A stretch of DNA of 29,943 nt from an uncultured Thermococci archaeon. Its GTDB lineage: Archaea; Methanobacteriota_B; Thermococci; Thermococcales; Thermococcaceae. This document shows, one piece after another, positions 1,709 through 24,123 of this stretch (positions are counted from its first letter, which is position 1; every line of letters starts with the position of its first letter). Made by a program: the position numbers and the translations under genes. The notes below the pieces were generated by a model that was given only the letters and a program-made list of their open reading frames with translations, was not told the origin of the DNA and did no database searches. The DNA lies in assembly GCA_964615185.1 (NCBI GenBank), contig CAZTOS010000022.1, positions 1 through 29,943 of the forward strand, in the 5' to 3' direction.

Positions 1709-3769
1709 CTATGTGAACGTTTTGGAACGATTCCTGTGTACATAGTAGAAGTCCCCTTCGCTATCGATGTAAATGTAGTCCGGAGAGTACTTTGGTCCGC
1801 AATATAGGTTATGCCCATCCAGACGATACCACAAAGCTCTGGCAGCTTCAAGCTTGTTAAGCTCGTCAAGAATTGCCAAATTGCCAGGTTTAATCATGTT
1901 GAGAAGCCTTTGCATGTACGCATCACTTATCCGAAAACTTATATATGAAGCAAAAAATTCATAGCCAGTGATGAACTCTTTGGACACATCCTTAAGAGGA
2001 TATGCCGGGGTTACTTTAATCCCAAATCTTTCATAGAACTCTCTTAGAGCAAATTTATCCGGTCTATAGGGAATAAGCCCAAGGGTCATGAGCTCAATGG
2101 TTTCTCTGGAATATTTTTTAGGCCAATCTGATTCAAAAGGATAAATATGTTCTGGAACTTTAGGATAGGGATCAAGTCCAAGAACGTAGAATGCTTTGTA
2201 ACTGCTTCCAATTAATAGGGGGACTCTCCAAACTACCACGACTTCAGAATGGTCAAGCTTTCCACCATTCAGACTTGCTGGGATTTGAATTGCCCATGCC
2301 TTCAGATTGAAATCCATAAAGAGATTATTCATGAGGATTACCTCAGTTTCTCCATCATATCCACATATTCCTGATTCAAGGCTACCAACTATTGGCACAT
2401 CACGGGAATGGACATAGATATTTACAAAATATGCCACATGGAGCGGAGTCATGGAGTAAAATGGAACAGGCTTTTTATAGTAACTTAAGAGCTTACGCTT
2501 TGCGTCTCTATAAAAAAACTTCATAGCGCCATCAAGCTTTATTTTGTGATAACGGGTGAAACCCAAATTCGGATAGATGGCCTCATAAACCTGCAAGGGT
2601 TTAAACTCAGCGGCTTTTTTCCACATGTATTCAATCTGTGCCTTTGTGTATAACTGTGCATTCTGAAACCAGTATTTTCCTTTCCCATTAAAGTATATTG
2701 GGAATACCAGTGGATAATGTGCCAGCACGAGACTGGTGGATTTTTTATTTCCCTTTGCATCATAAGCTTCTATTGTTATGGTGTAGTTTCCCCACTTTAA
2801 TGGAAACTGAATAACATGCATGTAGCTGAGAGATTCTGTTTTTATTGTGATATTCCTTTTTTCTTTTCCATTTATGAGGATCCTGACTCCATGAGGAGGA
2901 TTTGCATTGTCTTCAATGCTCAGAGATATCTCAACTACACCTGACGGCAAGCTTTCGACTTTACCTTGCATCTCTGGAGGTATTTTGTCGTTCCTGTACT
3001 CTTTCTGAAACTCAATCCATGTTCCATATACCTCAGAAATCTCAAATTTATGTGCATTTTTTATAAACCACTCTCTATAGGTGGTATTTGTGGAAATCTC
3101 TTGCCTAATCAGCTTTATCCCAGAAACAAACTTAGATATCTCAGCGGGTTCAAATCCTCCAAAAAGTCCCTGCATGTTATCAATCGCATCGACAACATCT
3201 GAAGGTAAGCCAGAGAGAGATATACTTAGTTCTTTAACCAGCTGGATATATTCAGTTAGAGTTTTTACTTGATAAATCTGATGTGAGTTCTCTATTCCTG
3301 CTCTAATATGGGGAGGAAGGGTTGAGTAAACATTTACAAACTCCCTAACTTGAGTGTTAAAAATCTCCACCTTTTTGGAGAACTCCTCCAAGGCATATGG
3401 AGAATCAGAAAACAGAAATCTCACCATGTCGTCTCTAAGAGGGAGGGGTACGGAATTTAGGGTCTGGGTTACTTGCCAGCATAACTCTGCAAATTTTTCT
3501 GGGTCCGTAACCTCAACATCTTCAAAGAGAGTTGTGTGATATTTGTAGACGGGATACACTTCTTCTATTATTCTTAGTTCATGCTCGGTTATTTTCCCAT
3601 CATTCAAGAATCCCAAGTGTTTCGCAATATCTTCATAGTCTGATTTAAGTGAGTATGTCTTTACAGGCATGATAGATTTTTTAACTTGAGGAGGCCGAAA
3701 TGCAAGCATGAGACCAAGTATATATATCACAATCAGGATTAACCCAACTTTACGTAAGTCAATTTGCAT
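1709..3769 (-). CDS. Membrane-anchored/secreted 686-aa protein with an Ig-like segment and a putative transglutaminase-like Cys-His-Asp domain
   Basis: N-terminal hydrophobic helix (KVGLILIVIYILGLMLAF); beta-rich GNYTITIEAYDAKGN segment; GICGYDG...LDHSEVVVVW...LGLDPY spacing. The function is inferred. Confidence 0.7.
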   Translation of the reverse strand: MQIDLRKVGLILIVIYILGLMLAFRPPQVKKSIMPVKTYSLKSDYEDIAKHLGFLNDGKITEHELRIIEEVYPVYKYHTTLFEDVEVTDPEKFAELCWQVTQTLNSVPLPLRDDMVRFLFSDSPYALEEFSKKVEIFNTQVREFVNVYSTLPPHIRAGIENSHQIYQVKTLTEYIQLVKELSISLSGLPSDVVDAIDNMQGLFGGFEPAEISKFVSGIKLIRQEISTNTTYREWFIKNAHKFEISEVYGTWIEFQKEYRNDKIPPEMQGKVESLPSGVVEISLSIEDNANPPHGVRILINGKEKRNITIKTESLSYMHVIQFPLKWGNYTITIEAYDAKGNKKSTSLVLAHYPLVFPIYFNGKGKYWFQNAQLYTKAQIEYMWKKAAEFKPLQVYEAIYPNLGFTRYHKIKLDGAMKFFYRDAKRKLLSYYKKPVPFYSMTPLHVAYFVNIYVHSRDVPIVGSLESGICGYDGETEVILMNNLFMDFNLKAWAIQIPASLNGGKLDHSEVVVVWRVPLLIGSSYKAFYVLGLDPYPKVPEHIYPFESDWPKKYSRETIELMTLGLIPYRPDKFALREFYERFGIKVTPAYPLKDVSKEFITGYEFFASYISFRISDAYMQRLLNMIKPGNLAILDELNKLEAARALWYRLDGHNLYCGPKYSPDYIYIDSEGDFYYVHRNRSKTFT

Positions 3770-4419: not shown

Positions 4420-4605
4420 TTTTCCCCCTAAGTATTCGTAGAATTTTTGTTTTGACTTGAATCTTTCATCATTCAGCAGAATAGCGACTGACATTTCGAC
4501 GAACTCTTGTACAGTCCAACCTCGTGAGCGTATTTCCTCAATAAAAGAAGCTGATAGCTTGATGTGTACCTGCTGATACTCGCCTCTTTTTCGAGTTCGA
4601 GCTAA
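4354..4605 (-). pseudogene. Int(N) fragment of a split SSV1/pT26-2-type tyrosine integrase overlapping the tRNA (attachment site); start codon lost
   Basis: Stop-free frame ARTRKRGEYQQVHIKLSASFIEEIRSRGWTVQEFVEMSVAILLNDERF...GGKWSRDRDLNPGPGDYESPALPS*. It has an RHH-like N-terminus and reads antisense through the tRNA 3' half. It is preceded by GTG-TAA-TTA rather than an intact start. Confidence 0.65.
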
Positions 4606-5363
4606 TTACACCAGCCCCCTATTTTTGGTGTACGGCATACTATCTGGACAACATTTTATGTAGTTTTAACCATCATTTATTCTTATTATGTTTTTTCTCT
4701 ATTCTATTTTTGAAAAATATGCGATCCCCTCAGAAGTACCATTTGAGTGTTTGTTACTACATAGGCATGCTTTATGAATGGTTATTACGATTACCTGACA
4801 AAATTATCCATGATACCTTTTGTTTTCCGAATACATGTCAGATGTTAGTTTTTCGCTCAATAAAAACTAATGGGGAACAGAATACTTTTTGTGTCAAGTT
4901 TCAATGACTAACAACAAAAATAAAGCAAGAATATTTGTGTGTTACACGAATGCGTTGCTATGCTTTTGGAAATTGTCCCTAATCTAATAATCTAACAAAA
5001 TTGAACTTTCTAAGTGCTCTATTTTCCCAAATCTTGACTTTTTATACTTTTTTGCAAGCTTTGTTTTGAGCATTCGTCAATAAAATTACTGTGTTAGTGA
5101 CTTTTTGACTTTTTATGCCACATTATTCAAAAACAAGGATTATTTAGTAGCTTTTAGAATTGAGTCAAAGACAAAACATGAATGGCGGAGAGAGGCAAAG
5201 GTGTCTCCCTCTTCCGCAGAGAAGCACAATATTATGTGTCACATATAGACACATCCAATATTTGCTCCCTTCATTTCATGTTTTCTCAAGTGATAATAAA
5301 ACTATTGAGCATGACCAAAAAGACTTTATCCCATTTTGAGTTATATAATGATTGGGATAGTAC

Positions 5364-8300
5364 ATGCCAAGGATTGAGATTGGCAATATACTAAAAAGTA
5401 CCAAATGGAAAGAGCCTTTTCTTGTAGAATTAATCCATGAACAAGATGGAATAATCAAAGTGGCTGGTTATTATCTCAATTCTCGTGAGCCAGATTATCT
5501 CATGATAACAGAAGCTGATTTAGAGGAAATAGAAATAATAAGCAATCCCTTGGACTTCAGGGCAGATCCTGAAAATGTTATGTTAGCGATAGAGAGTGAA
5601 AGATATCACTTTGCTTCTCTTTATGATCCTATACTTGCTGTGAGTATTTCAAAAATCGACCCTCTTCCATTCCAGATTGATGCTGTTTATAATTATATTC
5701 TCAAAAATCCTCAGATTAGGTTCCTTTTGGCGGACGATCCAGGTGCGGGAAAAACTATCATGGCGGGTCTTGTTATCAAAGAACTCAAACTAAGAGGACT
5801 TGCTGAGAGAATACTCATTGTGGCTCCAGGACATCTTGTAGAACAATGGAGACGTGAAATGAAGGAAAAGTTTCAAGAAGAATTCATAGTTGTCAAAAGG
5901 GAAATATACAAAAACACAACCGATGTATGGAGACGAGAGAAGCAGATCATTACCTCCATTGATTTTATCAAGCAAGAAGATATCAAAAAGAGTCTTGAAA
6001 CTGTAGATTGGGATTTAGTAATCGTTGATGAAGCTCATAAGTTGGCTGCTTATCGTTTTGGCAATAAACTCTACAAAACTAAGAGATATCGTGTGGGAGA
6101 GATATTGTCCCAAAATTCTACTCATCTGCTATTTCTCACAGCAACCCCACACAAAGGAGACCCAGAAAATTTCCGATTACTGTTAGATCTTCTTGTACCT
6201 GGCTTATTCTCTGACACTGAAATATTGTTGGAGGCTATAAGACGAAATGAAAATCCAATCCTGCTCAGGCGCATGAAAGAGGATTTGTATGATTTTGATG
6301 GGAAACCAATTTTCAAACCTCGTAAATCATATACTGCCCCATTTGAACTTTCAGAAGATGAAATGAAGCTCTACAATGAGCTATCTCTGTATATACGAGA
6401 TCAATATACTCTTTTTGAATCTACATCAAAAAGGCGAAACATTGCATTTGCCCTTGTTATACTCCAAAGAAGATTTGCCTCCAGTATATACGCACTCTTA
6501 CAATCGCTTAGAAGGAGAAAAGCTCGCTTAGAGGAATACCTTAGAAGTGGTAGAATAGAACTGAAAGAACCACAGCTCAATTGGGAGGAGTTACTTGCCC
6601 TCGAAGATGAAGAAGAACGCGAACGTTGGAAAGTAGAGCTTGAAATGGAAGGTTATACAGTTTCAAGGAGCAGAAAACAGATAGAAGCCGAGCTTAGAAC
6701 AATTGAAGAGCTGATCAGAAAAGCCGAAGAAATCATAGCAGAAGAACGTGAGACAAAGTTGAAGAAGCTGAAAACAACACTCGACGAAATCAAAAGAAAG
6801 CATGGAGAACGGGAGAAAATACTCATATTCACAGAGTTCAAAGACACCCTCGAGTATCTTGTTGATAAACTCCAAGAGTGGGGCTATTCAGTCACGTACA
6901 TTCATGGAGAAATGCCAATGGACGAAAGACTGCAACGTGAGAAGGACTTTAGAGAATGGGCACAAATTATGGTTGCCACTGAAGCTGCTGGAGAAGGTAT
7001 CAACTTGCAATTTTGCCATTTGCTGATAAATTATGATATTCCATGGAACCCAAACAGACTTGAACAGAGAATTGGTAGAGTGCACCGTTATGGTCAGGAA
7101 TATCCAGTGTATATTTTCAATTTCGTTGCTTCTAACACAAGAGAAGGAAAAGTACTCAAAAGCCTTTTAGAAAAGATTGAAAAAATCAGAGAGGCTCTTG
7201 GTGACAAAGTGTACGATGTTATTGGAGAAATTCTCGAAGGAGAAAAACTGTATCAGATATTATTAGAAGCAACAGCTAAAGCAGAAGATCTAGAACAATA
7301 TGTCAAGGAAATTGAACAGAGATTGAGCGATGAGAAGATTATTGAACGGATAAAAGAAGCACTTGGAGAAAGCCTTGTGACAAAACATTTTGACCTGAGA
7401 AAGATAAAGCAACTACTAGAACAGGCTGAGGAAAACAGATTGGCTCCAGAGTACCTTGAAGTGTTCTTCACGAAGGCTATGAAGAAGCTTGGTGCAAATA
7501 TACGAAAGAAAGAGGATAGAATCTACGCTATTGATAGGGTACCCCGTATTCTTCGTGAAATCGCTGAGAAGCAAGGATATGGAATTGTAGAACGATCCTA
7601 TAAGGCGATAACATTTGACAAGACACTTGCAAAGAAGAGAGACGATGTTGAGTTCATATCTTTTGGACATCCACTCTTTGATTCTCTGCTTCACTGGGTA
7701 CGTGAAAACTATCTAAAAGAACTCCAAAGAGGAGCTGTTTTCTATGATCCAAGCAATAAGCTACATGGTATAATCTGGTTCTTTGAGGGAGAAGTCAGAG
7801 ATGGCTTCAATATGACTGCAGGAAAGACTTTGGTAGCAATATATGACGATGGAGAGAATTTCGAAATTATTGATCCTAAGATAATCTGGGATCTCGAGCC
7901 AGCAAAAACCAATGAAGAAGTTCAAATCGAGTTCAAGAGAAGAGACGAAGCAATGAAGCATGCTCTCAAAGCTATTACTGAATATAAAGAGCAACTTCTG
8001 AAAGAAAGGAGAAGACAAGCAGAAATCAAAAAGAAATATGGGGAGAAATCATTGAGAAAACTCATTGATACCCTTGACTACAAGCTGGCTGAGTACGAGT
8101 TATATCCTCCAGAGGAGAGGAAACGTTATGCCCTCGTTATTAGGAACATAGAAGAAAGACTTGAGAGGTACAAGAGAGCTCTAAAAGAACTTCCAGAAAA
8201 GATAGCGAGGGAAACAAGTCTGACAGTAAGTCCACCAGTCTTCGTTGGAGCGATATACGTGCTTCCGAGAGGAGAGATGAGTGAAGATTTGGATATTGAA

Positions 8301-8663
8301 AAAATTGGAATGGAAGTTGTTATGGAGTATGAACGGAGGCAAGGAAGAAAACCTGAAGATGTCTCCAAGAAGAAGCTTGGATACGATATCTACTCAGAGG
8401 GGAATGGGGAGAAAAGGTACATTGAAGTAAAAGCAAGGGCTTATCTTGGCGATGTTGAACTGACGTGGAATGAGTATGTAACTGCAAAAAGACTGAAGGA
8501 CAAATATTGGCTCTATGTAGTTGCTTATGCCGCCGAGAAACCAAAGTTGTACCTCATTCGGAACCCTGCTGAGAGTTTGAAGGTCGTTGAGGAGTACGAG
8601 ATTAGATTTAGAGTCCCAGTCAATGAATGGAAGAGTAAAGGAGAAAAAGTTGATCTTAGTTAG
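5364..8663 (+). CDS. SNF2-family helicase with C-terminal DUF3883 PD-(D/E)xK nuclease-like domain (HmaA-like)
   Basis: Motif I LLADDPGAGKT, motif II VIVDEAH, motif III LTATP, motif V TEAAGEGINLQ, motif VI EQRIGRVHRYGQ; C-terminal GYDIYS...YIEVKA. Confidence 0.9.
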   Translation: MPRIEIGNILKSTKWKEPFLVELIHEQDGIIKVAGYYLNSREPDYLMITEADLEEIEIISNPLDFRADPENVMLAIESERYHFASLYDPILAVSISKIDPLPFQIDAVYNYILKNPQIRFLLADDPGAGKTIMAGLVIKELKLRGLAERILIVAPGHLVEQWRREMKEKFQEEFIVVKREIYKNTTDVWRREKQIITSIDFIKQEDIKKSLETVDWDLVIVDEAHKLAAYRFGNKLYKTKRYRVGEILSQNSTHLLFLTATPHKGDPENFRLLLDLLVPGLFSDTEILLEAIRRNENPILLRRMKEDLYDFDGKPIFKPRKSYTAPFELSEDEMKLYNELSLYIRDQYTLFESTSKRRNIAFALVILQRRFASSIYALLQSLRRRKARLEEYLRSGRIELKEPQLNWEELLALEDEEERERWKVELEMEGYTVSRSRKQIEAELRTIEELIRKAEEIIAEERETKLKKLKTTLDEIKRKHGEREKILIFTEFKDTLEYLVDKLQEWGYSVTYIHGEMPMDERLQREKDFREWAQIMVATEAAGEGINLQFCHLLINYDIPWNPNRLEQRIGRVHRYGQEYPVYIFNFVASNTREGKVLKSLLEKIEKIREALGDKVYDVIGEILEGEKLYQILLEATAKAEDLEQYVKEIEQRLSDEKIIERIKEALGESLVTKHFDLRKIKQLLEQAEENRLAPEYLEVFFTKAMKKLGANIRKKEDRIYAIDRVPRILREIAEKQGYGIVERSYKAITFDKTLAKKRDDVEFISFGHPLFDSLLHWVRENYLKELQRGAVFYDPSNKLHGIIWFFEGEVRDGFNMTAGKTLVAIYDDGENFEIIDPKIIWDLEPAKTNEEVQIEFKRRDEAMKHALKAITEYKEQLLKERRRQAEIKKKYGEKSLRKLIDTLDYKLAEYELYPPEERKRYALVIRNIEERLERYKRALKELPEKIARETSLTVSPPVFVGAIYVLPRGEMSEDLDIEKIGMEVVMEYERRQGRKPEDVSKKKLGYDIYSEGNGEKRYIEVKARAYLGDVELTWNEYVTAKRLKDKYWLYVVAYAAEKPKLYLIRNPAESLKVVEEYEIRFRVPVNEWKSKGEKVDLS

Positions 8664-9145
8664 CATTTATCTGGAGGAAACCAAAAACCAGCTTCAATAA
8701 GTTTCAAGCATATTTTTCGTTTTTCTTTACTTATAATTCCCAAGTTACACATAAGATCAAGTAATCCGATGGTGCCAATTTTCTCTAAGCCCAATTTGTC
8801 TGCGCTTTTTCTTGCCCGTCCATCATCAAGAACACACTTGTAAGGTATCTTCTTTTTGTAAAATTGTTGTCCAATCCAAAGAACAGCTAATTCTCCCTTA
8901 TGCAGAGAAGGAAACTTGTATTTTAGGTGAGTTAGTTCATCTTCAGGTACTTTGACTTTTTCGTAAAAACCATTGTAGTAGTCTCGTTCAATTTCTTGAA
9001 AGTTTTCATCGTAGGAAATTTCTTCAAAAACTTGTTCGGGGATTATCAATCTGTACCCTCGAAATGCTAATGATCTAAGTAATTCTGGGCGTTTGAGTTC
9101 GGTATAGAACGCTATCAAGACTGTGGAATCGAGAATAAGTCTCAA
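8660..9145 (-). CDS. PIN-domain (VapC-like, DUF3368-type) putative ribonuclease toxin
   Basis: LILDSTVLI, IPEQVFEEI, LHKGELAVL, VLDDGRARK..A..LGL..IGTIGLL and a GFWF tail. Confidence 0.85.
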   Translation of the reverse strand: MRLILDSTVLIAFYTELKRPELLRSLAFRGYRLIIPEQVFEEISYDENFQEIERDYYNGFYEKVKVPEDELTHLKYKFPSLHKGELAVLWIGQQFYKKKIPYKCVLDDGRARKSADKLGLEKIGTIGLLDLMCNLGIISKEKRKICLKLIEAGFWFPPDKC

Positions 9146-9163
9146 AATTTGATCCCTCCGAGT

Positions 9164-9760
9164 TTAGTAGCTTAGAGGTATTTTCATTTTTCTCTGTCTT
9201 AGAAGTCTCATGAATTCGGGAAGAGGTTTCCCTGCAATTTCGGCAGCTTTTGAAAGGCTGATTTTTCCTTTTTTGTATAATGAAATAGCTAAATTCACTC
9301 GTTTTTTGCGGATTTTATCCACTACACGAGATTCTTTGGTCATTTCTGGGAAAGTGAAATATATGTATGCAAGAAGTTCATCTTGGCTTAGGTCATTCAA
9401 GTCCTTCTTGATTTCTGATATCAGCTCAAGCAATTCTGGAGGGGACATTTTGAGCAATTCTTGGAAAAGGAGCTTGCCCTCTCTGGTTAGAGTAATTTCT
9501 TTGTTTTCAGATATCAACCCATAGCTTTTTAGATTCTCAAGTTGAACCTCGATGAGTTCACTATACGGTCCATAATGATGGGGCTCATATTGTGAAAGCT
9601 CACCCAGCCCTTCAATGTTATTTACGATCAGGAACATCTCCTTTTGTAACCAAGTCCTCCCTTTCACTGGCTTGTTATCGATACCCACCAGTAACAATAA
9701 GAGAGCCTGAAATGGATTCAATTCATTTGGAGACAGTACCTTCCTTTTTTTCTCCACCAT
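9164..9760 (-). CDS. Putative antitoxin: SocA/YwgA (Panacea-like) N-terminal domain fused to a UPF0175 HTH
   Basis: N-terminal GRTWLQKEMFLI...YEPHHYGPYSELI; C-terminal AISLYKKGKISLSKAAEIAG...EFMRLL. It lies directly upstream of the PIN gene. ATG at 9760 is preferred over 9769. Confidence 0.72.
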   Translation of the reverse strand: MVEKKRKVLSPNELNPFQALLLLLVGIDNKPVKGRTWLQKEMFLIVNNIEGLGELSQYEPHHYGPYSELIEVQLENLKSYGLISENKEITLTREGKLLFQELLKMSPPELLELISEIKKDLNDLSQDELLAYIYFTFPEMTKESRVVDKIRKKRVNLAISLYKKGKISLSKAAEIAGKPLPEFMRLLRQRKMKIPLSY

Positions 9761-9769
9761 TCTTCTCAC

Positions 9770-9801
9770 AAAACTTTATATGTTGGTACTATTTATAAAT
9801 A
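9770..9801. promoter_or_regulatory. Overlapping divergent TATA boxes
   Basis: AAAACTTTATATG about 25 nt before ATG 9805 (+), and palindromic TATTTATAAATA (9790-9801) about 30 nt before ATG 9760 (-). Confidence 0.55.
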
Positions 9802-9804
9802 CCT

Positions 9805-10983
9805 ATGGTGGACACTGTGGTAAAGGTGAAGATCATTTCTGTGGATGATGACACTTATTATGCTCACAAAAAGGTGAGAATTAGCAGTTCAAGAAGTTTT
9901 GAAACTCCAATAAAGGCAATTAGTCCTCAAAATCTTAGAAATGATGTTAGTCTCATGCATAATGAATTTGTGGATGAGATTTACATAGCTTTTACAAAAG
10001 AGCGTCTTGAAAATCTAATGAATCGAGGCTACGGTTCACTTACAAAAAATCTTAGAGAGCAGATTTCAAAACTTGATAATATTGACGACAAAGCAAATAT
10101 CTTGATACCAGCCTTACGTACTTCGAATGTTTCTAAAAAGGAACTTGAATTTTTAGCAGATATACAATCGTTTCCTATCTTTGATTTCTATGTTGTCCCA
10201 CTTGTAGAAAAAACAAAAAAGATGCAAATTACAGCGGAGCAGTATAAGGCTATTGTTGCCAACTTTATTGAAATCCTACAAACCCGCAATCATAAGGAAA
10301 TTATGGGAACATTGCCCCTTGGCTTTTCATACAATGAAATTCAAGACTTGCTGAATCTTTATCTTGACTTGGGAATAACTGCATTTTGTTTTGATTTTGA
10401 GGGCAAGGTTGCATTTTCAGTCTTTCCCACTCTTTCCATGGCTCAAGCCACACTTAGAAAAGAGGGGATTGACCCGTTCATACATGCTACTAATGTGAAT
10501 ATAGGCAAACCAAGCAAGAAAAGCAATGTAATTATAGCAAAGGATGTTTTGGCTTTTGGATTTGGAGTTGACTCCTTAGGAGATGACCATAAGCCTAAAG
10601 GAGGATCAAAAGAGGGAGAAACTCAAAAAACAAAAACTGACGAAAATCTGAGAATATTCAATAAGGAGGGATATTCTTACCATAGAGTATCCCCCACAGA
10701 TGTAGACCAAGTATATCCAGCTGATACAAAAATCCCCAAAGAATACTTGATAGAAGGTCGAAAAACGAAAAAACGGCAAGCTCAAAAAACCCTCAATTAT
10801 GAACAATTAGGGTTAGAAACGCTTAGAATAAGAGAGAAAATTGATGAACATGAAATTATACCGTATGTCTCCAGAAAACAGTACATCCGACAAGCTCCAA
10901 ACTTGATAGGAACTCTTCTTTCTGTTAGACATGTACAACTCGATGTCCCCTCATTCTTGAAGAATGTCAAGATTAGAAAATGA
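9805..10983 (+). CDS. Uncharacterised 392-aa alpha/beta protein; putative divergent tRNA-guanine transglycosylase (TGT/DpdA)-like TIM barrel
   Basis: N-terminal beta hairpin ending FETPIKAI (compare TGT ETPxFMP), IMGTLPLG, and IHATNV...[11 protein letters not shown] (compare HLLG...LGVDxFD). It lacks the DSGG and CxCxxC motifs. The ORF is certain; the fold is inferred. Confidence 0.5.
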
Positions 10984-10997
10984 AGGGAGGATGTAAA

Positions 10998-13760
10998 ATG
11001 GAAGACAAACGCCTTATTGAGGTTACTTTTCCGGTAAAAGAAGTTAGTGAAGAATCTGCAAGGGAAAAGAACATCCGTCATGGTCATATTTCTACGCTCC
11101 ATATTTGGTGGGCAAGACGACCTTTAGCATCATCAAGAACGACCAACTATGCCGCATTAGTCCCAGCCCCGAAAGATATTGAAGAACTTGAAAACAAGAG
11201 ACAATTTGTTGCTGAGCTCTCAAAATGGGAAAACTCTCTCAATGAGATAATTATTGAGAAGGCAAGGAGAGATATTTTAGAGGCATTCAAAGGAAGACGA
11301 CCAAGAATACTTGATCCATTTGCTGGTGGAGGGGCAATACCTTTAGAAGCCCTCCGTTTAGGTTGTGAGACCTATGCCTCCGACTATAATCCAGTTGCCG
11401 TGTTGATTCTCAAAGCTGTTTTGGAGTACCCTCAGAAATATGGAAGGAAAAAGAGAAGCAGAGGAGCTCTTGATCAATGGGTTTCACCTAAGGAACGGGA
11501 TGAAGAAGATAAGTACGATCTCGTTGCAGATGTCAAAAAGTGGGGAGAATGGGTACTTGAGGAAGCAAAGAAGGAACTTGAAAGGTTTTATCCAAAAGAT
11601 GAAAATGGATACATTCCAGTTGGGTATATATGGGCAAGAACAATAAAGTGTCAAAATCCCGCTTGTGGTGCTGAAATTCCACTGATGAGGCAGTTTTGGC
11701 TTGCAAAGAAGGACAAGAAGAAGGTAGCTCTTTACCCATATGTTGAAGGAAAAGATGTGAAGTTCAAGATAGTTGGCGATGGTTATGAGCCGATGCCAAA
11801 AGGGTTTGATCCATCAAAAGGTACAGTCAAAGGGGCTAAAGTAACTTGCCCAGTGTGTGGAATGACTCACGATGCGAACACTACAAGAAAGCTTTTCCGT
11901 GAGGGCAAAGCTGGTCAGAGGATGGTTGCTGTTGTTTTGTATCATCCAGAGAAGAGGGGAAAGGTGTACCGTTTGCCGACTGAAAAGGATATTCAAGCAT
12001 ACGAGGAGGCTAAAAGGTACCTTGAAGAGAAGAGGGCTAAGCTGATGGAAGAATGGGGTATTGATCCAGTGCCTGATGAGCCAACCCCAGAAGGGAGAGG
12101 TAGAGGTGCGGAGAGAGCGTTCTCGGTGAGGAACTATGATTTGAACACTTGGGGAGATTTATTCAATGATAGGCAAAAGCTTGCATTGATAACCTTTGTC
12201 GAGAAAGTTAGGAAAGCTTACGAGAAGATGCTTGAAGAAGGTTATGATAAAGAATACGCAAAGGCGATTGTGACGTATTTAGCTCTAATTATTGATATGG
12301 TAAGTGCTTTTACTAATGTCCTTGCAAGATGGGATAATACCTCAGAAGCTATAAAACAGCTATATTCTCGTCAAGTACTCCCAATAATGTGGGATTATCC
12401 TGAAGCTAATCCATTTAGTGGTTCTACGGGTAGTGTTATAACTGGGTTATCCTACTACCTTCAAGTTGTAGAACATTGTTCAATGACTTCAGAAATTCCA
12501 GCAGTAGTCTTACAAGCCTCAGCAACCTCACTCCCATTTCCAGATAACTATTTTGATGCTGTTTTTACTGATCCCCCCTACTATGATAATGTTCCCTATT
12601 CATACCTCAGCGATTTCTTCTATGTCTGGTTGAAACGTACAATTGGTGATTTATATCCAGAGTTGTTTGTAACTCCACTTACACCAAAGAGCAAGGAGCT
12701 TGTTGCTTACACCACTGATAAAGACTGGGAAGCTGCAAAGAGGTACTTTGAGGAGGGAATGAAAAAAGCTCTCCAAGAAATTTACCGCGTTCTCAAGCCA
12801 AACGGTATCCTTGTGCTTGTCTATGCTCATAAGACCACTGAGGGATGGGAAACGCTCATAAATTCTCTTCTCGATTCTGGACTTGTTCCAACGGCATCTT
12901 GGCCAATTCATACAGAGATGAAAAATAGGCTTAGAGCTAAAGAATCTGCCGCTCTTGCTTCGTCAATCTATATCGTCGCAAGAAAAATCAAAAAGCATGG
13001 AATTGGCTGGTTCGATGAGGTAAAGCGTGAGATGAAGAAAAAGCTCGAAGAAAAGCTTGATACTCTGTGGAAAGAGGGTATAAGTGGTCCCGACTTCTTC
13101 ATCTCAGCCATAGGCTCAGCCATTGAGGTTTTTGGAAAGTATGAGAAGGTACTTGACTATGAGGGCAACGAGATAAGAGGCGATAGACTGCTACAGCTTG
13201 TGAGGGACATAGTCAGCGACTATGCAATAAGGCAGGTACTCCATGAGGACATATCTTCTGAGCTTTCTCCACTAACTAAGTTCTATGTGCTCTGGCGCTG
13301 GACATACGGTGAAGCTAAAGCTCATTTTGATGAGGCAAGAAAGTTGGCAACGAGCGTTGGGCTTGATCTTGAAAAGGAGTGGAATAGGAGCTTTATCAAA
13401 AAGGAGAAGGAGTATATCTATGTCCTTGGACCGCATGAAAGGAAACTCAAGGAGATAAAGGGCAATGACCTAATTGATGTTCTTCACAAAGCTTTGTTGC
13501 TGTGGCAAGCTAACAAGAGAAGAGAAATGGTTGGGCTTTTGGTGGAGACGGGCTGGGGAGAGAAGGATGTTTTCTATAAGGTTGCACAGGCTATCAGCGA
13601 AGTTCTACCAAATGACAGTAAAGAGAAGAAGCTTCTTGAGGGTTTCCTTGCTGGTAAGAGCAATATATTGAGGGCTATTGAGAATGGGGATTACTCGATG
13701 TTTGTTGATAATGGTGAGCGGAAGAAGCAGGTAACTTTGGAAGAGTTTATTGAGAGGTAG
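10998..13760 (+). CDS. DUF1156-domain amino-methyltransferase (N6A/N4C) with Zn ribbon (COG1743; HmaB-like)
   Basis: N-terminal [13 protein letters not shown]-binding DPFAGGG, CQNPAC and CPVC Zn pairs, catalytic TDPPY. GGAGG RBS precedes ATG 10998. Confidence 0.92.
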
Positions 13761-14459
13761 TGTCTTTTTGTTCTTTTTCTATAATTTCTGGAAGATACAC
13801 TACTTGGAGTCTTGCTTGTGGGAATTCTTCTTTGAGACTGGTAAGTAGCTGGTTTGCTGTTGTTGAGAAGTTTTTGTCTATTGTGTAGAGAGTGCATTCT
13901 TCTTCTGACTTTATGGAAAAAATAAATGCTTGACTAAATATCTGAGCATCGTGATCATCCTTGAATTTTCCTCTTACACGATTGTATATCTCGATTGCAG
14001 TTTCTAATTCGTTATCACTTAGATTTATTACATTTGTTCTTGCACCTAACGAGTCTATTTTTGCTGTCTGTTCGATTATGAAGTCATTCATCTCTTTTAT
14101 TAGTTTGAAACGATTCTTTCTTAGAAGAAGCCTTTTTCTTCAGCAATTTGAATAATGTACTTGCAGAAATTTAGTATCTTAGGCTCGGTTTTTTCACATA
14201 TTTCAACTGTGAGCTTTTTGATGGTCTCTATTTCTTCATATTCGTCGGTAATTTGTAGTTTGTTGGCTTTGCTAATTGCTTTTTTGAGTTTTGTTAGGGC
14301 GCTGAAGGATTTTTCGTAGAAACTTTGCCTGAGTTCATGGTACACTGATTCCATAATATCCATTCTATGTTCTGCAAAGAATTTCTCAACAAGCTCGTGA
14401 TGAGGGTCTGTTTTCAGAATGCTGGCTATGAGGATGTTTGTGTCGACGAAGTTGGGCAT
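13747..14459 (-). pseudogene. PIN-domain nuclease (~235 aa) split by a frameshift near 14120-14140
   Basis: The 5' ORF (14121-14459) has FVDTNILIA and SVYHEL. The 3' ORF (13747-14091) has DDHDAQI and LYTIDKNF. The second frame is open back across the first ORF's stop, so adding one base joins them. Confidence 0.8.
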
Positions 14460-15184
14460 TCTTCACCCACCAATTTGAGAATTTCCTCCAATTCTTCGGG
14501 GCTTGCTGTTTTTTCGAGTTTAGGTGCCATCTCGACTATATCCTTCTTGAGGAGTTTTATGTGCTCTTCTCTTCCATTTAGAATAGCCAGTATCCTAAGG
14601 TTGAGCATCAGAATGTACAAGGAGAGTTCAACATCCTCCCAGTTTTCCAGCATTTTTTGGTACAGCTTTATGAGGAGAGAAATCCCTTGATCCAATGCAA
14701 GGTACTTTTCAAAATCTTCATCGGGGATATCATCATCGGATGCAATTTCGAGGATACTGTCTCTCATAGAGTTCAGTATACCTATCTGTCTTCTTATATC
14801 AGTCTTTAGGGAAGCTTTCAGTTCGTTTTTATTTATGATTTTGACTAATTCGTTTATCTCTTTCATTACATCTTTGAGTTCTTCATTGAATATTTTGAGT
14901 ATCTCTCCTTGGGCTTTTAGATAGTACATTCTATTAGCTTCTTTTGGCAAAACCTCAATTACTCGATTTAGAATCCTTCCTCTTTTTTCTTCTAATATTT
15001 GTTTTAGTCTCAAAAGTGCTCGAAATCTGTGGGTTTGATGTTTTTTCCTTACGTAGGGAATTGCTGAAAAAGAGGGGTGCACAGCATCTAATATTCCCAT
15101 AAGTAGGTCATCAGAATATTTTTCCACCAAAATATCAGGGAGAATCCATGATGTTTGTGCTGTTGCTGTTGTTCCCATGTTCAT
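14426..15184 (-). CDS. Uncharacterised all-helical protein, upstream partner (putative antitoxin) of the PIN gene
   Basis: Amphipathic Leu/Ile/Glu/Lys-rich helices. It overlaps the PIN start by 34 nt, with a GGTGA RBS before ATG 14459. TTTATAA about 27 nt upstream favours a start near 15184 rather than 15256. Confidence 0.7.
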   Translation of the reverse strand: MNMGTTATAQTSWILPDILVEKYSDDLLMGILDAVHPSFSAIPYVRKKHQTHRFRALLRLKQILEEKRGRILNRVIEVLPKEANRMYYLKAQGEILKIFNEELKDVMKEINELVKIINKNELKASLKTDIRRQIGILNSMRDSILEIASDDDIPDEDFEKYLALDQGISLLIKLYQKMLENWEDVELSLYILMLNLRILAILNGREEHIKLLKKDIVEMAPKLEKTASPEELEEILKLVGEECPTSSTQTSS

Positions 15185-15334
15185 CACTATCTGTTCTTGT
15201 GAATATGAACTTATAAATTTTACATATTGTGTAGTATGTAGTTTGTACTTGCACATCTGTATACTACGGTTTATATTGTATTCCTAAATAAAAGCTAAAT
15301 AAAAAGTTTTTATACTTCTGCTTGTTTTCATGTT

Positions 15335-16387
15335 TTGGTGGGACTTGTGAAAAGGGCAGCTTCGCTAGTTATGATGTTTTTGATAATTGGTGCTGTTATT
15401 ATGGGTGGATGTCTCCAGAAAGACAGTGTTGTTGTAGTTACTAAGACTTCTATGGAATCTTCATTTTCACGTAACAACATGAATACTAAGGAGAAATCTT
15501 CCAAAGATACGAATCTTGCAGGGCAAATTAGTGCAAGTAAGCCCAATATAACTTCCATAGACCTAAATCTAACTTCCCAACAGGAGTTGAGTTTGGGAGA
15601 GGAAATAAGAAAATTCACTCAGAGTTTGAATGAGAGCGTGAGAAAATACGGGTATGATAATCTTACGATAATCTTGGCAAGTAATATCTCGTCTCTCCCA
15701 AAGCTTCCTGAATGTGGTGAGATAGCCAGAATGGGAGAGAACCTTACTCAATATCAGGAAAGTGTTTCTAAGCTGAATGCTCTCCTGCATGAGTATAAAA
15801 ATCTTGGAGAGGGAATTTTAGAAGAGTATGGGATCTACGTACCGTATCTAAAGGATCGTGAGATAGACCAGTTTGTGAATACTTTAGACCCTAAAAGCAT
15901 GAGTGTGACCTGCAATCTAATCGAAGATTATAATGCGCTGATTGATGCAGCAAATCAAGTAGAACCTGAAAATAGGGAAACATACACTGAATTTTATCTT
16001 CGTTTGCTCATTGTAGGACTTGAAATAATTTTCTTCAAGGAAAACTTGGCTTATAAATTAGCATACACCTTTGTTGGAAAGTTCTTCTGGAAAACTGGAC
16101 TGTTTCATATTATCTACCGTTATGGCGGCAGTACTGCACTGAAAGTAGCTATGAGCGTTGCACATTGGGAAACGCGCGGTAGAATAAACAAGTATATTGA
16201 TGAATTTGGTGATGATCCACATAAAATTTCCTCATTGATATCAAACGTTAGCAATAGTACGTGGATTGAGGAACATACTGAATCACTCTTGGATTCACTT
16301 AAAAATGGCACAGAAAAAGTGAAAAACGTAACTTCTGGTATTTTCGATAAAATTAGCGATTTCTTTGGATCAAAGGATAATGGATGA
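15335..16387 (+). CDS. Predicted lipoprotein of unknown function
   Basis: KR plus hydrophobic stretch plus IMGGC lipobox, a Ser/Thr/Asn-rich linker, a helical body and a second hydrophobic region. The exact start is uncertain (15335-15347). Confidence 0.75.
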   Translation: MVGLVKRAASLVMMFLIIGAVIMGGCLQKDSVVVVTKTSMESSFSRNNMNTKEKSSKDTNLAGQISASKPNITSIDLNLTSQQELSLGEEIRKFTQSLNESVRKYGYDNLTIILASNISSLPKLPECGEIARMGENLTQYQESVSKLNALLHEYKNLGEGILEEYGIYVPYLKDREIDQFVNTLDPKSMSVTCNLIEDYNALIDAANQVEPENRETYTEFYLRLLIVGLEIIFFKENLAYKLAYTFVGKFFWKTGLFHIIYRYGGSTALKVAMSVAHWETRGRINKYIDEFGDDPHKISSLISNVSNSTWIEEHTESLLDSLKNGTEKVKNVTSGIFDKISDFFGSKDNG

Positions 16388-16441
16388 GGTATACCAAAAA
16401 GCAAAAATACTCTGGAGTACAAGGATGTAAAGGTGATGCTA

Positions 16442-19069
16442 ATGGATTTGAAGCCGTTCTATCATGTTGCGATTCCTCATAATGACATAAAGGAGGGGAA
16501 ATTTACTCTCGATACTTTTGCCGCCGATCTCTGGAGTGTGTACCAGAATAAAGGTCCTTTGGAGTACAGAAATCCTAAGCTATTCTGGGAGAGAACATAT
16601 CCCACAAGGGGACTGATAACTCTCCTTGAGTTAGCTGAGAAACGACTCCAAAAAGGCGTTGGAGATGCAGTAATACAGCTCCAGACACCTTTTGGTGGAG
16701 GTAAGACTCATTCTCTCATTGCTTTGTATCATAGGGCTCGTGAATGGAATGCTAATGTTGTTGTCCTTGATGGTACCGTTTTTGATGCTAAGGAAGTCAG
16801 ACTTTGGGAGGAAATGGAACGCCAGCTTACAGGTAAAGTAGAAAGGATGAGAGGAGATACATCACCGGGAAAGGCTAAGATAATGGATCTCCTTGAGGAA
16901 AAGAAGCCTGTCCTGATTCTAATTGATGAGCTCCTTGAATATATGACAAAAGCTGCAGGAATAAAAGTTGGGGAGACGACACTGGCTGATCAGACTCTGG
17001 CGTTTATTCATGAGCTTACTGAAGCTGTAAAGGCAACTGACAGAACATTTTTGGTGATGACTCTGCCTTCAAGTATTTTGGAGCATTATTCTGAAAAAGC
17101 TGAAGAGTACTTCCAAAAGCTTCAAAAAATCTCTGGTAGGGCTGAAAAAGTTTTCACACCCGTTCAGGATGAGGAAATTTATGATGTTGTCAGAAAGAGG
17201 CTCTTCAAGAGAATTGACGATGCCGAGATGGAGAGAATTGTAAAGAAGGTTGTGGAATACTTAGAAAAGGAGAATCTTATTCCTGAAGGAATAACTCCCT
17301 ATCAATATCGAGAGAGATTTCTAAGGAGTTATCCATTCCAGCCAGAAGTGATTGATGTCCTTTACAAAAGATGGGGAAGTCTTCCAAAGTTTCAGAGAAC
17401 ACGAGGTGTGCTTAGGCTTCTTGCAATAGTTGTGCATTCAAACATAGGTAAAGAATTACCCTTCATTCGTTTGGCTGATTTTGATTTAGGTATCAAGGAT
17501 TTGAGAGATGAATTAGTTAGTGTAATTGGTGAAAGCAGGTATTACTCAGTCCTCGATGCAGACATTCTTTCTCCTGATTCTGGGGCTAAGAGGGTTGATA
17601 GGGAACTCGGAGAGTCATATGTACATTATCGTATTGGTACAAAAGCTGCAACGGTAATTTTCATGTACTCTTTCAGCAGTGGGGAGCTAAAAGGTGCTAC
17701 TACAAAGGAGATAAAGCTTTCCACAGCAGACCTTAGATATCCAAGTAGCATTGTGGGGGATGCAATTCTTATGCTAAAGGACAATTTACTCTACCTCCAC
17801 TATAGGGATGGCAGGTACTTTTTCAGCCTTGAACCAAGTCTGAATAAGCTTTTACTTGATGAAATGAACAATGTAACTGAAGAAGAAATAGAGGAGCTTG
17901 AGAGGAGTTTATTGAAAAGTGAAGTGCCTGGAAGGTACTTTAGACCGTATTTGTGGCCTAAAGACTCAAGGGATATTCCTGATAATGATCCTACCCTAAA
18001 GTTAGTTGTTCTCAGGGAATATGACTCAGAGAAGGTTTATCAAATTCTGAATTCATCTGGAAGTACAGCAAGGGTGTACAAGAATACCCTCATTTTCCTC
18101 GTACCTCGTGAAACTGAAAGAGTAGACTTCAACAGAAAAGCTCGTAAGTACATTGCTTGGGAGAGGATAAAGCAAAAATCTGATAGAGGACAACTTGAGC
18201 TCACGAAAGAGCAAAAGGAAGATGTGAGACTCAATGTCAAAAAGGCAAAAGAAGACGTCAAACAAAAGATTTCGGAGTTGTATAGAGTAATTTTGTTGCC
18301 GACGAAACAAAGGTACGAGGAACTTGATCTCGGAATGAAACCTGTGGGAGAAAAGAGCACAATTGAGAAGAGAGTTTATGAAAAGTTGAAGAGCGAAGGA
18401 AAGCTAATTGAAACTATGGCACCTATTGTCATTGAAAAGAAGTATTTAGACGATAAAGAGTACATTTTTACGGATCTTCTCTATGAGAGTTTTCTGAAAA
18501 CGCCTGGGATGCCTCTTGTAAAAAGCAAGAAAGTTCTGGCAGATGCAATAAAGGAGGGGGTAAAAAGAGGAATGTTTGGTCTTGGATATGTAAAAGATGA
18601 GATTATTAGATGCGAGTATTTGGGAGAAGGTGTCTCTCCAACGTTTGAAGAGGGAGAAGCAATAATCAGAAAGGATGTTTGTGAAAGTTTGAGGGTTTCA
18701 AAAGAGGAAGAAGGAGAGCCTACTGAGAAAGAAGGTACGGGAGTTTCAGAAAAAGAAGACGAGTCTGAGGTAACTAAAAAGAGATCTCCAGAAAGAGAGG
18801 GAGAGCCTGTATCATCTGGGAGAGTTGACACAGGAACTACCCATACAGAGGAAACATTTGAACAGCTTGACTTGAGGCTCGAGCTCGGTTCTGGAGTTGG
18901 TGGATTGCGTACGGTTATCAGTGTACTGAATTTCCTAAGAAATAGGTTCGATGACATTGAGGTTACAATTGAAATAAAGGCAAGAAATGGAAAATTGACA
19001 AAGAGGGAGTACGAGGAGAAGGTGTTAGAGGCATTGGAAATGGCAGGTATCAAGGTCGGGCATAAGTAG
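16442..19069 (+). CDS. DUF499-domain AAA+ ATPase (COG1483; HmaC-like)
   Basis: N-terminal PHNDI...FAADL, Walker A TPFGGGKTHS, Walker B LILIDEL, SYPFQPE and FQRTRGVLRLLA. GGTGA RBS favours ATG 16442. Confidence 0.92.
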   Translation: MDLKPFYHVAIPHNDIKEGKFTLDTFAADLWSVYQNKGPLEYRNPKLFWERTYPTRGLITLLELAEKRLQKGVGDAVIQLQTPFGGGKTHSLIALYHRAREWNANVVVLDGTVFDAKEVRLWEEMERQLTGKVERMRGDTSPGKAKIMDLLEEKKPVLILIDELLEYMTKAAGIKVGETTLADQTLAFIHELTEAVKATDRTFLVMTLPSSILEHYSEKAEEYFQKLQKISGRAEKVFTPVQDEEIYDVVRKRLFKRIDDAEMERIVKKVVEYLEKENLIPEGITPYQYRERFLRSYPFQPEVIDVLYKRWGSLPKFQRTRGVLRLLAIVVHSNIGKELPFIRLADFDLGIKDLRDELVSVIGESRYYSVLDADILSPDSGAKRVDRELGESYVHYRIGTKAATVIFMYSFSSGELKGATTKEIKLSTADLRYPSSIVGDAILMLKDNLLYLHYRDGRYFFSLEPSLNKLLLDEMNNVTEEEIEELERSLLKSEVPGRYFRPYLWPKDSRDIPDNDPTLKLVVLREYDSEKVYQILNSSGSTARVYKNTLIFLVPRETERVDFNRKARKYIAWERIKQKSDRGQLELTKEQKEDVRLNVKKAKEDVKQKISELYRVILLPTKQRYEELDLGMKPVGEKSTIEKRVYEKLKSEGKLIETMAPIVIEKKYLDDKEYIFTDLLYESFLKTPGMPLVKSKKVLADAIKEGVKRGMFGLGYVKDEIIRCEYLGEGVSPTFEEGEAIIRKDVCESLRVSKEEEGEPTEKEGTGVSEKEDESEVTKKRSPEREGEPVSSGRVDTGTTHTEETFEQLDLRLELGSGVGGLRTVISVLNFLRNRFDDIEVTIEIKARNGKLTKREYEEKVLEALEMAGIKVGHK

Positions 19070-23679: not shown

Positions 23680-24123
23680 TTGGTGTTTGATTTGGAGGAC
23701 AAGATTCGACATAAAAAGGAATTAATTGAGATGAGCCTGAAAATTATTCGGGAAAATCTCCCGGATTCTTTGGAGAGCTTTTTAAAGATGGGGCTTGAAA
23801 AAGATGGAATATACAAGCAACTTGAATTTGCCCTCCAAAATGTTCTGGATATATGTAACGAGATAAACTCCACTCTTGAGCTTGGCATAGTGATTGGATA
23901 TAAGGATATTATTGGGAACCTTCATAAGGCAAAAATAATAGATGATAGCCTTAAGAAAAAACTGGAGTTTTTGATACAGCTTAGAGAAGTTCTGATTTAC
24001 AATTATGACCTTATACGAGATGAAATAGCCTTTAAAAATATGCCTGAATACTTAGCTATGATTGAAGACTTTTTGGCATTCACTCAAAGATTCCTTGAGG
24101 GACAAAAATGGCTGGAATCTTAG
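23680..24123 (+). CDS. DUF86/HEPN-family protein with degenerate RxxxxH motif
   Basis: LEFALQNVLDIC...GYKDIIGNL...LREVLIYNY, with Tyr where the His is expected. Confidence 0.7.
   Translation: MVFDLEDKIRHKKELIEMSLKIIRENLPDSLESFLKMGLEKDGIYKQLEFALQNVLDICNEINSTLELGIVIGYKDIIGNLHKAKIIDDSLKKKLEFLIQLREVLIYNYDLIRDEIAFKNMPEYLAMIEDFLAFTQRFLEGQKWLES

Follow-up and report, generated by a model that had tools for sequence, protein, structure and literature searches.

PIN ribonucleases of the COG2405 type have UPF0175 proteins as their cognate partners. According to the accessible parts of the papers cited here and below, UPF0175 occurs only with the COG2405 PIN (PMC5499597), the COG2405-COG2886 combination is a predicted classical toxin-antitoxin (TA) pair (PMC2701414, PMC5499597), and PDC-S70 is abundant in archaea, most such candidates being unvalidated (PMC12988326). 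The TGT fold is also found in conflict systems: TIM-B (Beta protein, PF14350) is described as related to TGT and as regulating diverse effectors negatively (10.64898/2026.10.19.760177), and Cap10 of type IV CBASS as a TGT remodelled for protein binding and without Zn (10.1101/2025.04.06.647259). Furthermore, the slot between hmaA and hmaB is known for antiviral cargo (10.1101/2024.01.29.577857). Here, we analysed a stretch of 29,943 nucleotides (nt), contig CAZTOS010000022.1 of assembly GCA_964615185.1 (the window, with positions counted from its first letter), in which this slot holds genes for a PIN RNase, an antitoxin and a TGT-like protein of 392 amino acids (aa). These three genes are one conserved mobile module, a real and apparently undescribed three-gene system made from known kinds of parts, whose function is predicted. 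The gene content suggests that the host is a member of the Thermococcales.

Like COG2405-COG2886/PDC-S70, the trio has a DUF3368 PIN with an acidic active site beside UPF0175, but differs in the fusion of UPF0175 to a SocA-like domain and in its near-obligate third gene of 392 aa. The antitoxin shares its winged-helix domain type with those of SocAB, PanAT and DarTG, whereas the trio lacks a macrodomain, DarT and SocB and has a TGT-fold protein as the predicted ligand of this domain. TIM-B is comparable in coupling a TGT-related barrel to a toxic effector, as its proposed negative regulator; however, it is described as keeping the TGT-equivalent active-site residues, which the 392-aa family does not, and neither a PIN nor a Panacea-UPF0175 partner is named for it in the accessible part of its section (10.64898/2026.10.19.760177). 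Cap10, DpdA and ArcTGT/QTRT1/QTRT2 have the same fold as the 392-aa protein. Both Cap10 and DpdA, unlike the 392-aa family, have retained the catalytic aspartates, and the neighbourhood of the family showed no CD-NTase, QueC or Dpd genes. The Hma-embedded candidates HEC-01 to HEC-09 also lie between hmaA and hmaB, but no HEC model matches the trio genes, the module is mostly found away from Hma, and the HEC list, as far as accessible, contains no TGT (10.1101/2024.01.29.577857). The TGT in BRC systems stands in a different context (PMC12839542). Neither the trio nor the 392-aa family is described in the accessible parts of PMC8832971, PMC4158269, PMC10164549, PMC12988326, PMC10440598, PMC2701414, PMC5499597 and PMC9690074. 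The searched literature contained no mention of the trio, although supplements (the bioRxiv PADLOC PDC tables including PDC-M19, and the ParA/TIM-B preprint) could list it; an earlier note, made from the letters of this DNA, had likewise recognised no named system. The module is laid out as follows.

9145-8660, minus strand: 161-aa PIN RNase (COG2405/DUF3368 type), the candidate toxin/effector; starts at a TTG preceded by GGAGG
9164..9760, minus strand: antitoxin/adaptor, 198 aa, SocA/Panacea/DarG-C-like domain plus UPF0175; ATG at 9760
9761..9804, no strand: divergent spacer of 44 nt between the antitoxin ATG (9760) and the TGT-like ATG (9805)
9805..10983, plus strand: TGT-fold pseudo-enzyme, 392 aa, of an unnamed archaeal family, with a C-terminal PIP-like motif (structure model)

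The linkage of these genes was examined in 97 loci, 90 of which contain the TGT-like gene and fall into 76 clusters at 90% identity. The 26 clusters with less than 1300 nt upstream were set aside; a partner is nevertheless visible in 18 of them, and the upstream sequence of the remaining 8 does not exceed 458 nt. In the 50 informative clusters, both partners were present in 43, the antitoxin only in 3, the PIN only in 0 and neither in 4, the latter being two fragments, one marginal homolog and one intact Haloarcula orphan; the PIN adjoins the TGT-like gene in 43/50. When the 10 clusters found via the antitoxin are subtracted, both partners accompany 34 of the 40 TGT-selected loci. The partner profiles were built from the same loci as those counted, but were blind to position. 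Chance neighbourhood was rejected, as the linkage is far above chance; as a control, the genome's four other DUF3368 loci show no TGT-like gene within the flanking sequence fetched, and the UPF0175 matches there measure 66-86 aa. In 42 trios, the distances between homologs are correlated among the three proteins (rho 0.80-0.85, compared with a permutation maximum of 0.27-0.36), which indicates co-inheritance, not binding. The earlier note had read the three genes as one module and named absent linkage of 392-aa homologs to PIN/UPF0175 as its refutation; instead, the linkage recurs across archaea. The divergent arrangement seen in the window is a minority form, as 32 of the 43 trios are co-directional operons in the order antitoxin, PIN, TGT-like, while 9 are divergent and 2 have other orders.

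Reverse searches in the host phylum yielded 20 genes resembling the antitoxin: 13 in trios, one with the TGT-like gene only, one in a broken locus, four next to members of an unrelated family of 420 aa and one beside an sce7726-like gene. The 12 strongest Asgard matches comprised 9 trios, 2 loci without the PIN and 1 antitoxin alone (30/45 places fetched), and the three full-length matches in 401 Nanoarchaeota genomes were the three known trios. The trio is spread over Thermococci-related, Nanoarchaeota and Asgard genomes and metagenomes.

Two further settings of Panacea-like genes were observed. A sister module (L120, L121, L122, L125, L163 and L167) combines a Panacea-like gene, a 120-140-aa nuclease-like gene and the 420-aa A7, sometimes with a different PIN; A7 has no family match, and its Atlas neighbours are bacterial. 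A7 shows no detectable relationship to the TGT-like protein (hhalign probability 1%). Asgard 316-aa Panacea-like proteins (L173-L178, L180) have a conserved setting unlike that of mobile TA genes and adjoin a 371-aa gene, which is NAD kinase in L173.

Within the window, the module lies in an Hma locus with the following flanking genes.

5364..8663, plus strand: HmaA helicase, left flank of the host locus (PADLOC match, E 3e-206)
10998..13760, plus strand: HmaB DUF1156 methylase, right flank of the host locus (PADLOC, E 4e-145; Pfam)
16433..19069, plus strand: HmaC DUF499 ATPase of the host locus (PADLOC, E 2e-129; Pfam)

The three hma genes are co-directional, as expected of an Hma system. The PIN stop (8660-8662, minus) overlaps the HmaA stop (8661-8663, plus) in a shared 'ttag', and 14 nt separate the end of the 392-aa open reading frame (ORF) at 10983 from the methylase ATG at 10998; the earlier note had the overlap and both distances (44 and 14 nt) exactly right. 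The 44-nt spacer contains TATA-like words in both directions, TTTATAT near 9776 and the palindromic TATTTATAAATA near 9790, which are putative promoters of both divergent genes. Its sequence is not conserved relative to other divergent loci, and visual inspection of 9 other divergent spacers revealed no conserved operator.

Nine close Hma relatives (HmaB 78-86% identical) carry the trio in 0/9 cases; their hmaA-hmaB gap is empty in four and holds a different single gene in five, in line with the view of the earlier note that gaps inside such loci are hotspots for accessory genes. The DNA similarity to these relatives breaks off near 8653 and returns near 10986, and the trio is therefore an insertion in a variable slot. 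Only 7/90 loci are Hma-linked, so the idea of a specifically Hma-embedded system did not hold. An integral Hma subunit was rejected in view of the 0/9 count; the module is cargo in the Hma locus. The PADLOC run proposed in the earlier note returned the HmaA, HmaB and HmaC flanks and PDC-S70 on both the PIN and UPF0175. Elsewhere, restriction-modification (RM) or Hma genes lie near at least 18/90 loci, and further loci are accompanied by integrases, AbiE, other TA genes or housekeeping genes alone. The nearest named relatives (38-40% identity in the TGT-like protein) come from a Nanoarchaeota metagenome-assembled genome (MAG), where the same layout lies ahead of hmaB, a Njordarchaeota MAG and Ferroglobus; trios from the host's own family are more distant, which suggests horizontal transfer.

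Such mobility could also belong to a selfish addiction or stress module that merely gathers in defence islands and has no antiviral role. The patchy occurrence (3/251 Nanoarchaeota genomes, 0/7 same-genus genomes), the integrases, transposases and VirB4 among the neighbours and the classical TA prediction for COG2405-COG2886 (PMC2701414, PMC5499597) would fit. However, the 392-aa third component is retained across phyla and the insertion occupies a slot known for antiviral cargo (10.1101/2024.01.29.577857). We hold this explanation to be highly unlikely; the module is probably defensive, with a putative antiviral function.

The 392-aa protein and the homologs scanned have no Pfam, PADLOC or NCBIfam match, and searches of PDB sequences gave no real match. 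Against the TGT and Beta_protein (PF14350) profiles, 0 of 105 family members matched (PF14350 at E 0.05). One scan of viral contigs found no relatives, and a viral fold library returned generic barrels only (template modelling score at most 0.49). The family counts 449 representatives at E<=1e-3, and its three nearest Atlas clusters are 91-100% archaeal. The structure model (pLDDT 92.7) shows a TGT-type TIM barrel with a C-terminal helix extension. It matches ArcTGT 1iq8 with Z 23.7 and a root-mean-square deviation (rmsd) of 3.7 over 317 aligned residues (Foldseek E 4e-9), followed by bacterial TGT (Z 22.4), QTRT2 (21.4), Cap10 (16.1) and DpdA (15.7), while the next unrelated barrel reaches only Z 12.6. 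In line with this, hhalign of the family profile with a profile of six TGT-family proteins from the searched genomes, including the genome's own ArcTGT, gave 85% probability (E 6e-6). The label TGT-like given in the earlier note is thus borne out by structure.

The residues of TGT chemistry are a different matter. In the profile alignment, G254-x-D256-x-x-G259 aligns with G-x-D-x-F-D of TGT, so that the nucleophile D243 of the own ArcTGT sits opposite G259, a position with Gly in 121/128 members. The Zn-site pattern CxCxxC occurs anywhere in only 3/128 family sequences; of the general acid and base-binding aspartates of the own ArcTGT, D89 falls outside the local alignment and D124 at a gap, and the family has no conserved Asp there. 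With Gly in place of the nucleophile Asp and no Zn ligands left, the 392-aa protein is, judged by its residues, a pseudo-TGT as regards transglycosylation, although other chemistry is still possible. An active tRNA transglycosylase was rejected, since the TGT residues are lost and the genome has its own ArcTGT. The earlier note had the protein sensing or altering a nucleic acid; of these, alteration by transglycosylation is unlikely. The family is basic (pI above 8.5 in 43/47) and conserves P35, E58, P132, D197, N230, D247, H262, R283, Y290, Y292, N331, E338 and K358. The invariance of E58, D197, N230, D247, H262, R283, Y290 and Y292 would suit an active barrel enzyme of new chemistry, such as base excision or transfer onto DNA or a partner, that represses its effector constitutively as proposed for the TGT-related TIM-B (10.64898/2026.10.19.760177). 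We consider this unlikely, given the Gly in place of the nucleophile, the absent Zn ligands, the lack of QueC, DpdB and DpdC matches among 136 neighbour proteins scanned and the absence of PF14350 from all 105 members. One marginal family member without partners (L140 4288-5424) has a weak DpdA match (E 3e-4) and is a possible link to active TGTs.

The PIN matches DUF3368 in Pfam (E 4.5e-6) and the antitoxin UPF0175 (E 3.4e-11), and the PDC-S70 models of PADLOC match both the PIN (E 3e-15) and UPF0175. Among 49 PIN homologs, the acidic residue E42 is invariant and E85 and D107 are at least 90% conserved, and D6 is present. The PIN is therefore, as the earlier note had it, an intact candidate effector by these residues. 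The antitoxin consists of an N-terminal winged helix (~10-145) and the UPF0175 helix-turn-helix (152-193). Its 44 members match UPF0175 in 38, PDC-M19A in 43 and DarG in 24 cases, whereas SocA_Panacea PF13274 matches weakly (2/44, best E 0.001). It carries the conserved motif QKELF..F.P...GPYS, which we take to be SocA-like. The best fold match of the N-domain is the DarG C-domain 7yk3_D (Z 10.7, rmsd 3.6, 148 aligned).

Of the co-folding proposed in the earlier note, the antitoxin and TGT-like pair scored 0.81, compared with 0.02 for the best control. The score mark is reached by 116/157 solved complexes and 2/215 mismatched pairs, counts that hold only roughly for our own alignments used here. 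The model runs agree to at least 91%, and the partner pLDDT is at least 85; a comparable solved complex for this pair was not found. On the antitoxin side, the modelled interface involves residues 9-113 and 143, none of them in UPF0175; on the TGT-like side, it involves the loops 173-178, 201-212 and 235-238 and the tail 364-391. The best contact pairs involve V381, F384 and L385, the hydrophobic positions of the tail motif Q378-x-x-V381-x-x-F384-L385. The TGT-like protein is thus predicted to dock on the SocA/DarG-C-like domain, leaving UPF0175 free for the PIN.

The PCNA-interacting peptide (PIP) motif is defined as C-terminal and Qxx[I/L]xxFF-like (PMC9690074), and the looser Q-x-x-[LIMV]-x-x-[FYW] was used for counting. 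This loose pattern occurs in 38/181 family tails, compared with 17/1110 ORF tails of the genome and 45/2580 internal windows, and in at most 9 shuffled family tails (200 shuffles). Among 47 informative loci, the Q form was found in 7 and a degenerate form in 22. The strict matches in the genome include proteins that we take to be PolB, RFC and FEN1. The PIP-like tail points to DNA/PCNA rather than tRNA. HmaB also ends in a PIP-like motif, QVTLEEF, a strict match, which suggests a clamp-tethered methylase.

The same interface could be that of a double antitoxin restraining two toxins, in which the TGT-like protein is a DNA- or clamp-directed toxin whose PIP tail is masked by the SocA-like domain, while UPF0175 holds the PIN. 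The best predicted contacts fall on V381, F384 and L385 of the motif, the closest fold of the antitoxin domain comes from a toxin-antitoxin complex, and SocB, which blocks the bacterial clamp, binds it (PMC9690074). Gene losses bear on this alternative in both directions. Compared with G458 (86-97% match), G410 has lost ~1.1 kb from the TGT-like gene and 0.4 kb from the PIN but retains an intact antitoxin, as two toxins would have it, and L164 shows a similar decay. In L139/L028, a Panacea-only gene accompanies the TGT-like gene without the PIN. However, an intact orphan TGT-like gene with a PIP tail (L088 6938-8152) lies beside Eco57I-type methylases on the Haloarcula plasmid CP050016.1; a search of this plasmid, not of the chromosome, gave no match to the antitoxin. 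Moreover, the antitoxin-PIN pairs without the TGT-like gene that this alternative predicts were not seen, as no fusion antitoxin with an intact DUF3368 PIN lacked it among the reverse-search loci examined, and the PIP-like tail is absent from many members. In the 50 informative loci, the antitoxin and TGT-like gene occurred without the PIN three times, and the PIN and TGT-like gene without the antitoxin never. Taken together, the losses fit a non-toxic regulator restraining the PIN somewhat better than two independent toxins, an explanation we regard as possible but doubtful. Several acidic homologs among the P-proteins resemble the haloarchaeal orphan.

We favour, with moderate confidence, a mobile tripartite TA 'guard' acting at DNA or the clamp, leading from the pseudo-TGT via the SocA-like/UPF0175 adaptor to the PIN RNase. 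The TGT-like protein is predicted to bind the SocA/Panacea-like domain through its barrel-face loops and PIP-like tail, and would serve as a non-toxic sensor or co-repressor. It may bind nucleic acid, for which DNA at the PCNA clamp is the likeliest candidate, and would keep the antitoxin inhibiting. Invading DNA, the clamp or a viral protein would then draw the pseudo-TGT off the antitoxin, and the freed PIN would cut RNA and halt the infected cell. As precedents, Cap10 and TIM-B are TGT-fold regulators, and Panacea has been proposed as a sensor platform (PMC10440598). Several points weigh against the guard. About half of the members keep the antitoxin without a PIP-like tail, so masking of the tail is not a universal switch, and the invariant polar residues E58, D197, N230, D247 and H262 may be catalytic. 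The count of defence neighbours lacks a background control, many loci have a housekeeping neighbourhood, many contigs are short, and the losses observed are few (3, 1 and 1 cases). Lastly, we infer the sensor role and the trigger, and the antitoxin-PIN contact is taken from family knowledge. In a bolder version, a catalytically dead TGT would ride PCNA and read foreign or base-modified DNA, and the PIN would be unlocked when the PIP tail left the Panacea domain for the clamp. We judge this improbable, as we do its example target, viral DNA that contains 7-deazaguanine and evades the restriction systems nearby; if true, a tRNA-modifying fold would have become a replication-coupled DNA sensor.

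Archaeal antiviral systems are poorly catalogued, and an unnamed family of several hundred clusters here gains a context and a predicted binding partner. The module also offers a concrete candidate ligand for a Panacea-type domain, the sensing role of which is treated as open (PMC10440598). It adds a further route of the TGT fold into conflict systems and, with three small genes, is directly testable.

Other features of the window were also recorded. Between hmaB and hmaC (13747-15256, minus strand), a 276-aa gene and a PIN gene form a second, unnamed embedded module. The 276-aa gene is present in 7/9 close Hma loci, and the PIN, frameshifted here into 112+114 aa, is a single 232-aa gene in 5/9. 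A 350-aa gene before hmaC (15335-16387, plus strand) is without a Pfam, NCBIfam or PADLOC match and has a homolog in L185. The 0.9-kb stretch before hmaA (4420-5364) is without ORFs of at least 80 aa. A 686-aa protein (1709-3769, minus strand) has a weak phage tail-tube match as its sole one, and a HepT-like gene lies at 23680-24123 (plus strand).

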